A DNA stretch of 64,000 nt from Escherichia coli (GTDB lineage Bacteria > Pseudomonadota > Gammaproteobacteria > Enterobacterales > Enterobacteriaceae): the NCBI RefSeq assembly GCF_003018255.1, contig NZ_CP027440.1. One strand, given 5' to 3'. The first letter of the stretch is position 1. Each line of letters begins with the position of its first letter. Under the pieces are notes generated by a model. The model saw only the letters and a program-made list of their open reading frames with translations. It searched no databases and was not told the origin of the DNA. Shown piece after piece: positions 8,438-9,007 of this stretch. Position numbers and translations under genes: made by a program.

Positions 8438-8521
8438 TTATCTTTTAGGCGTTCAATTTAAGTAGCCCAAAGCGGGCTGCTTACTGGAAGCGCCCGCCTG
8501 GTGACTAAAACTCCGAAGGGA

Positions 8522-9007
<486 letters not shown>

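Follow-up and report, generated by a model that had tools for sequence, protein, structure and literature searches.

The length of ribosomal protein S7 is a known polymorphism between Escherichia coli K-12 and E. coli B. The short form, found in E. coli B, in MRE600 and in the majority of natural isolates (WP_001138043.1), has 156 amino acids, whereas the long form of K-12 (MG1655, W3110 and EMG2; UniProt RS7_ECOLI) has 179. The underlying rpsG mutation is common to EMG2, MG1655 and W3110 (PMC9997739), and the same article attributes a C-terminal extension of S7 to it and traces the SsrA tagging of K-12 S7 to this extension combined with weak UGA termination by the K-12 release factor RF2, a Thr246 variant (PMC9997739). 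The MRE600 genome paper holds nothing specific on S7 length.

Two further kinds of system invite comparison with the end of rpsG. Saito and Nomura reportedly located, in 1994, a structure that binds S7 between the rpsL and rpsG cistrons of the str operon. A later survey describes this structure as a multi-helix junction confined to part of the Gammaproteobacteria (PMC3616713). The rpsL-rpsG site and the rpsG-fusA junction considered below belong to the same operon and occupy spacers of about 96 nt between translationally coupled cistrons; they differ in that the S7 site lies one spacer upstream (approximately 8993-9088) and is a demonstrated repressor site, whereas the rpsG-fusA junction is a prediction. 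In our sequence the rpsL-rpsG spacer (8993-9088, minus strand) is 96 nt, the same length as the rpsG-fusA spacer, and no Rfam model matched it at the gathering score. Recoding sites of the readthrough type share with the end of rpsG a stop codon, an open frame beyond it and RNA structure, but the rpsG end is unlike them in its strong UAA-U context and in a downstream frame that is not conserved.

The rpsG allele of the window and of other E. coli genomes

The window is the whole 64,000-nt stretch of E. coli DNA that we analysed. It carries the str operon as minus-strand open reading frames in the order rpsL (9089-9523), rpsG (8522-8992), fusA (6311-8425) and tufA (5056-6285), an order annotated likewise in K-12, NCM3722 and REL606. 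The features around the rpsG stop codon are as follows.

8522-8992, minus strand: rpsG, 30S ribosomal protein uS7, 156 aa plus TAA (open reading frame list, translation and Pfam)
8522-8524, minus strand: rpsG stop codon TAA, followed by T at 8521 (UAAU)
8456-8521, minus strand: 22 in-frame sense codons, non-coding in the window (translation and frame comparison)
8453-8455, minus strand: TGA, the stop used by the K-12 long S7 and the first three bases of the predicted P1 3' arm (columns 99-101 of alignment A2)
8426-8521, minus strand: rpsG-fusA intercistronic spacer, 96 nt (from the sequence)
8432-8435, minus strand: fusA Shine-Dalgarno GAGG (read from the sequence; columns invariant in alignment A2)
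6311-8425, minus strand: fusA, elongation factor G, 704 aa (open reading frame list and annotation of the homologous K-12 and REL606 regions)

From its ATG at 8992-8990, rpsG runs through 156 sense codons to the TAA at 8524-8522, and the protein ends in ...KAFAHYRW; the minus-strand translation bears out an earlier note on this DNA, which had S7 end at HYRW-TAA after 156 residues. The fusA ATG (8425-8423) lies 96 nt from the TAA and 27 nt from the TGA. Pfam family PF00177 (Ribosomal_S7, S7p/S5e) matched the window S7 at 212.8 bits against a cut-off of 24 (E=2e-63), with residues 2-149 covering profile positions 1-148 of 148. The exact protein is present in the public collection as 'MULTISPECIES: 30S ribosomal protein S7 [Enterobacteriaceae]'; a Yersiniaceae S12 protein of 124 aa sits in the 90%-identity cluster of S7, which looks like an oddity of clustering. 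The window rpsG is the short, wild-type or 'B-type' S7 allele, with a stop at codon 157 and a 156-aa product and without the TTA that marks the K-12 long allele at that codon.

Past the stop, the frame remains open as far as the TGA at 8453-8455. The earlier note had identified both this stop and the intervening peptide correctly and had miscounted the distance, giving 23 codons and 69 nt for what are 22 sense codons and 66 nt; 23 is the length of the K-12 extension with the mutated stop position (Leu157) included. Its statement that the 179-aa S7 of K-12 arises from a mutated stop proved accurate, as the MG1655-type locus translates to 179 aa and is one base apart. Between the start of rpsG and the fusA ATG, a span of 570 nt, the single difference from MG1655-type K-12 falls at rpsG nt 470 (A in the window, T in K-12), that is at base 8523, the middle of the window TAA, so that codon 157 is TAA in the window and TTA (Leu) in K-12. 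The first 156 residues are the same in both, no nucleotide differs across the 22 codons that follow position 157, and the K-12 stop stands 27 nt before the fusA ATG against 96 nt for the window stop. The codons at 8456-8521 are translated only in MG1655-type K-12, as S7 residues 158-179. The two findings that the earlier note had named as fatal to its reading, a K-12 S7 of 156 residues or a miscounted frame, did not materialize: MG1655-type S7 has 179 aa, and in-frame continuity to the TGA is confirmed.

The comparison of stop positions that the earlier note had proposed gave TTA in MG1655-type K-12 and TAA in the B strain REL606, which matches the window at every base of that 570-nt span, the strain background being different. 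The same 570 nt are also identical in NCM3722, a K-12 strain with TAA and a 156-aa S7. NCM3722 differs from MG1655-type K-12 at two of 30,077 aligned bases, one of them the rpsG stop, and we therefore conclude that the stop loss arose inside the K-12 laboratory lineage. The two differences from K-12 NZ_CP132594.1 are at positions 32073 and 34952 of the retrieved NCM3722 locus, the non-stop difference being within annotated tuf (tufA). That the window comes from a non-K-12 strain, as the earlier note held, agrees with an overall identity to K-12 of 98.3% (473 mismatches in 28.5 kb, 1.7% divergence). The argument offered for it, that a short S7 means not K-12, fails on NCM3722; since NCM3722-type K-12 is also short, the non-K-12 origin of the window rests on overall divergence and not on the stop codon.

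The nearest complete genome to the window is that of E. coli JNE23-011 (100.0% identity over 39001-64000 and 99.3% over 1-25000). Against the nearest complete genomes, JNE23-011 and JNE112863, the window is a mosaic, with 100.0% identity over its last 25 kb and 99.3% over its first 25 kb, a pattern that points to recombination of a segment within or close to the chiA-str-crp region.

To count the two alleles we queried complete E. coli genomes with 55-mers centred on the variable base; every 28-base megablast word then includes that base, which makes the search allele-specific. TAA was present in 5,077 and TTA in 348 of 5,426 genomes, and these 5,425 are all the genomes with the locus. Sixty TTA records, taken at regular intervals from the ranked matches, all look like K-12 laboratory derivatives or transconjugants (K-12, MG1655, BW25113, DH5alpha, DH1, J53, HB101, MC4100, TG1 and similar strains), and the genomes of all 60 measure 4.46-4.74 Mb. 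Among structures in the PDB, 319 entries hold the 179-aa chain sequence and 44 a 156-aa chain matching S7 residues 1-156. RefSeq/PGAP labels rpsG of the MG1655-type K-12 genome NZ_CP132594.1 (19559-20026 of the retrieved locus) a pseudogene, 'incomplete; missing C-terminus'. This label is an annotation artefact of the stop-loss allele, and the gene encodes a functional 179-aa S7.

The reading frame beyond the stop codon

An open run of at least 22 codons in the same frame occurred in 31% of mononucleotide shuffles of the 96-nt spacer, and at least 22 open codons follow 46% of the 52 long open reading frames in the window; the 22-codon run is therefore no more than chance would provide. Frame +1 of the rpsG-fusA spacer has 20 open codons. 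The 22-residue tail after the TAA had no Pfam family match. We also considered a separate small open reading frame within the spacer and rejected it, because the spacer offers no start codon equipped with a ribosome-binding site and other species do not keep the frame.

For comparison between species we scanned one genome per species with the last 24 nt of rpsG as the pattern, which returned 95 loci, and used the 87 (window included) with fusA 78-99 nt downstream. These came from Escherichia whittamii, Salmonella, Citrobacter, Klebsiella, Kluyvera, Enterobacter, Pantoea, Photorhabdus, Xenorhabdus, Morganella, Proteus and others. Neither the downstream frame nor its stop is conserved across these 87 Enterobacterales loci: anything from 0 to more than 130 codons stay open beyond the TAA, a second stop directly follows TAA in five loci, and the spacer lengths of 78-99 nt fall into modulo-3 classes of 52, 13 and 22 loci. 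It follows that the 66 nt after the rpsG TAA are non-coding and that programmed readthrough is very unlikely. The spacers of Salmonella enterica subsp. arizonae and Kosakonia oryzendophytica (96 and 99 nt, both multiples of 3) stay open in frame from the rpsG TAA through to fusA, and the same stop loss in either organism would yield an S7-EF-G fusion instead of a 23-residue extension.

UAA followed by U is the strongest and most efficient termination context in E. coli. The base after TAA is T in 86 of the 87 loci, and the rpsG stop of the window, read as UAA-U, is not a leaky context.

Two other accounts of the stop codon deserve weighing against this evidence. If some wild-type ribosomes passed the TAA and made a functional 179-aa isoform, with the hairpins described below as stimulators, one would expect the open frame and the RNA structure just 3' of the stop that are in fact found, and the ribosome evidently tolerates the longer protein, which K-12 lives with and which the 319 PDB entries contain; an efficient stop context kept in all but one locus, indels that are not multiples of 3, immediate second stops in five loci, an open run of a length expected by chance and a tail outside any protein family nevertheless make such programmed readthrough highly improbable. 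Even less credible is the proposal that the long S7 is ancestral and the TAA a derived nonsense mutation that truncated S7 in the lineage of the window strain. The window and MG1655 taken as a pair cannot give the direction of the change, but the wider distribution does: TAA stands in 5,077 of the 5,425 E. coli genomes with the locus and in E. coli B, and, among loci all of which were fetched with a pattern ending in TAA at the stop position, in Escherichia whittamii, Salmonella, Citrobacter, Klebsiella, Pantoea, Xenorhabdus and Morganella, as well as in Gilliamella. NCM3722, two bases in 30,077 from MG1655-type K-12, has TAA as well, and the Pfam S7 domain ends at residue 149. The outgroup distribution has already refuted a long ancestral S7.

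We are thus highly confident that the window carries the normal ancestral rpsG stop and encodes a 156-aa S7, that the 66 nt beyond it are non-coding and that the 179-aa protein of K-12 results from stop loss. On this account translation ends at UAA-U to yield the 156-aa protein, the form that nearly all E. coli share with other Enterobacterales, and the 66 nt after the stop are simply the first two thirds of the 96-nt intercistronic spacer. In the K-12 branch of EMG2, MG1655 and W3110, an A-to-T change (TAA to TTA) lets ribosomes continue to the UGA at 8455-8453, adding 23 residues for a total of 179.

A predicted RNA junction at the rpsG-fusA boundary

The minimum-free-energy fold of 8405-8565 has an energy of -54.2 kcal/mol (z=-3.96), and none of 200 shuffles folded as well. 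The predicted structure is a three-way junction of P1, P2 and P3, with the following elements.

8539-8546, minus strand: predicted P1 5' arm, GGCGUUCG, inside rpsG codons 150-153 (K-A-F-A)
8448-8455, minus strand: predicted P1 3' arm, UGAACGCC, pairing with 8546-8539
8510-8535, minus strand: predicted P2, a small hairpin with the codons H-Y-R-W as 5' arm and the TAA at its apical loop
8467-8501, minus strand: P3, a hairpin rich in G+C, CCAGGCGGGCGCUU...AAGCAGCCCGCUUUGG, midway along the 22 'open' codons (fold and covariation)

As DNA the spacers align well. Their most invariant stretch is GAACGCC, with invariant or near-invariant columns in alignments A1 and A2; it is complementary to GGCGUUC of rpsG codons 150-152 and lies approximately 20 nt upstream of the fusA ribosome-binding site. 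The A-rich 12 nt at 8447-8436 and the fusA Shine-Dalgarno at 8435-8432 are unpaired in the predicted folds. Folding each sequence by itself, we found P1 in the minimum-free-energy structures of 61 of 73 unique sequences; the 12 exceptions are all Photorhabdus, where an alternative pairing replaces P1 in the minimum-free-energy fold of the 12 unique sequences. A P3-type hairpin of at least six uninterrupted pairs is predicted in 72 of the 73, with other stem sequences at the P3 position in Photorhabdus, Xenorhabdus, Morganella and Proteus, and the register of P2 differs between genera.

Base pairs were counted in a 39-sequence alignment of Enterobacteriaceae type with the structure written by hand. 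In this alignment 95.7% of cells are paired; shifting the 3' partners by 1-3 columns lowers the figure to 37-54%. Six pairs of P3 have changed on both sides, a number that none of 500 shuffles reached. P1 is paired in 100% of cells, its changes being confined to G-C to G-U and U-A to U-G, and P2 (helices 2 and 3) in 95%, with no two-sided changes in a hairpin whose 5' arm was fixed by the search pattern. Because the pattern fixed the 5' arms of both P1 and P2, one-sided changes are the only ones visible there in the 87 loci. Covariation support for P1 comes from a single outgroup lineage, Gilliamella, in which the 5' arm has TTT for TTC and the 3' arm AAACG for GAACG, a compensation of C:G by U:A, and in which a similar predicted junction is kept (a closing helix with two internal hairpins). 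The P1 arms are unchanged or nearly so in Arsenophonus, Xenorhabdus vietnamensis, Pantoea sp. Pent and Yersiniaceae. Judged by pairs kept through compensatory changes, P3 behaves as a cis-acting RNA, and P1 contributes one compensatory pair, that of Gilliamella.

For the 72-sequence MAFFT alignment of all genera, RNAalifold gave no consensus structure: Enterobacteriaceae and Morganellaceae do not have their P3 arms in the same register, and pairs were accordingly counted on the family-level alignment. When rpsG 3' ends with another Ala codon (GCH) were sought in metagenomes, 120 loci came back and no Enterobacterales variants; these loci belong to distant bacteria, their spacers are unrelated and mostly short, and they are uninformative on P1. 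Rfam had no match at the gathering score in the whole window, and in 8380-9120 returned chance-level matches (E>4). A search of the available literature for experimental data on the structure of the rpsG-fusA junction found none. From the folds and the pair counts we regard the rpsG-fusA spacer as conserved at the level of RNA structure, with partial covariation support: the covariation is demonstrated for P3, and we infer that P1 and P2 form in vivo.

The Yersiniaceae chromosome CP165628.1 has a rpsG-fusA spacer of 213 nt (2443-2655 of the retrieved locus) in place of 96 nt. Its additional segment of about 117 nt is strongly structured and lies between P2 and P3, with P1 still predicted to close around it; the insert may be a small repeat or mobile element.

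A stable G+C-rich stem-loop kept by covariation between two genes could act in transcription, terminating or attenuating it so that fusA-tufA is transcribed less than rpsL-rpsG, instead of being part of a coupling or insulating element. We consider this unlikely. The P3 hairpin is present, but no U-tract follows it (the sequence continues ...GCCCGCUUUGGGCUAC), the tail after the stem, UUUGGGCUAC, is not that of an intrinsic terminator, and terminator and promoter scans of 8200-9700 returned nothing in the spacer at 8426-8521. In addition, fusA is an essential gene, and its translation is reported to depend on that of rpsG (PMC10931766). There is still room for P3 to have a Rho-dependent role or a role in processing, whether as an RNase III or RNase E site or in protecting the 3' end of an rpsL-rpsG fragment.

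Implications for S7 and EF-G synthesis

One study describes fusA translation as coupled to rpsG translation (PMC10931766), and the predicted junction can be read in that light. P2 would present the stop codon, and P1 would pair rpsG codons 150-153 with GAACGCC; the junction might then bring the rpsG stop near the fusA ribosome-binding site, or might insulate that site and so keep it open. Either role would support translational coupling of fusA to rpsG. That the rpsG-fusA junction is a functional coupling or insulating element is a tentative proposal, to which we give rather less than even weight. Similarly speculative is the more specific model in which a conserved P1-P3 junction brings the stop codon to the open, A-rich fusA site and thereby sets the coupling of EF-G to S7 synthesis. 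In MG1655-type K-12, ribosomes would have to unwind P2, P3 and half of P1 and would terminate on the UGA that starts the P1 3' arm.

For the strain itself, the result serves as a check on background: the window shows the normal state of S7, being the common short allele, and a short S7 does not by itself exclude K-12, given strains of the NCM3722 type. The long S7 of textbooks, of UniProt and of most E. coli ribosome entries in the PDB is a mutation of the laboratory lineage. Automatic annotation mislabels K-12 rpsG as a pseudogene. To read the 22 open codons as hidden coding potential would mislead. What K-12 ribosomes translate through is, on the present model, a conserved spacer RNA, and this could matter for the link between EF-G and S7 synthesis. 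If the coupling model is right, the stop loss of MG1655-type K-12 would force each ribosome to open the entire junction and then to terminate, slowly, on a UGA within P1, and what was classically established in K-12 about coupling in the str operon and feedback by S7 might not hold for wild-type E. coli.
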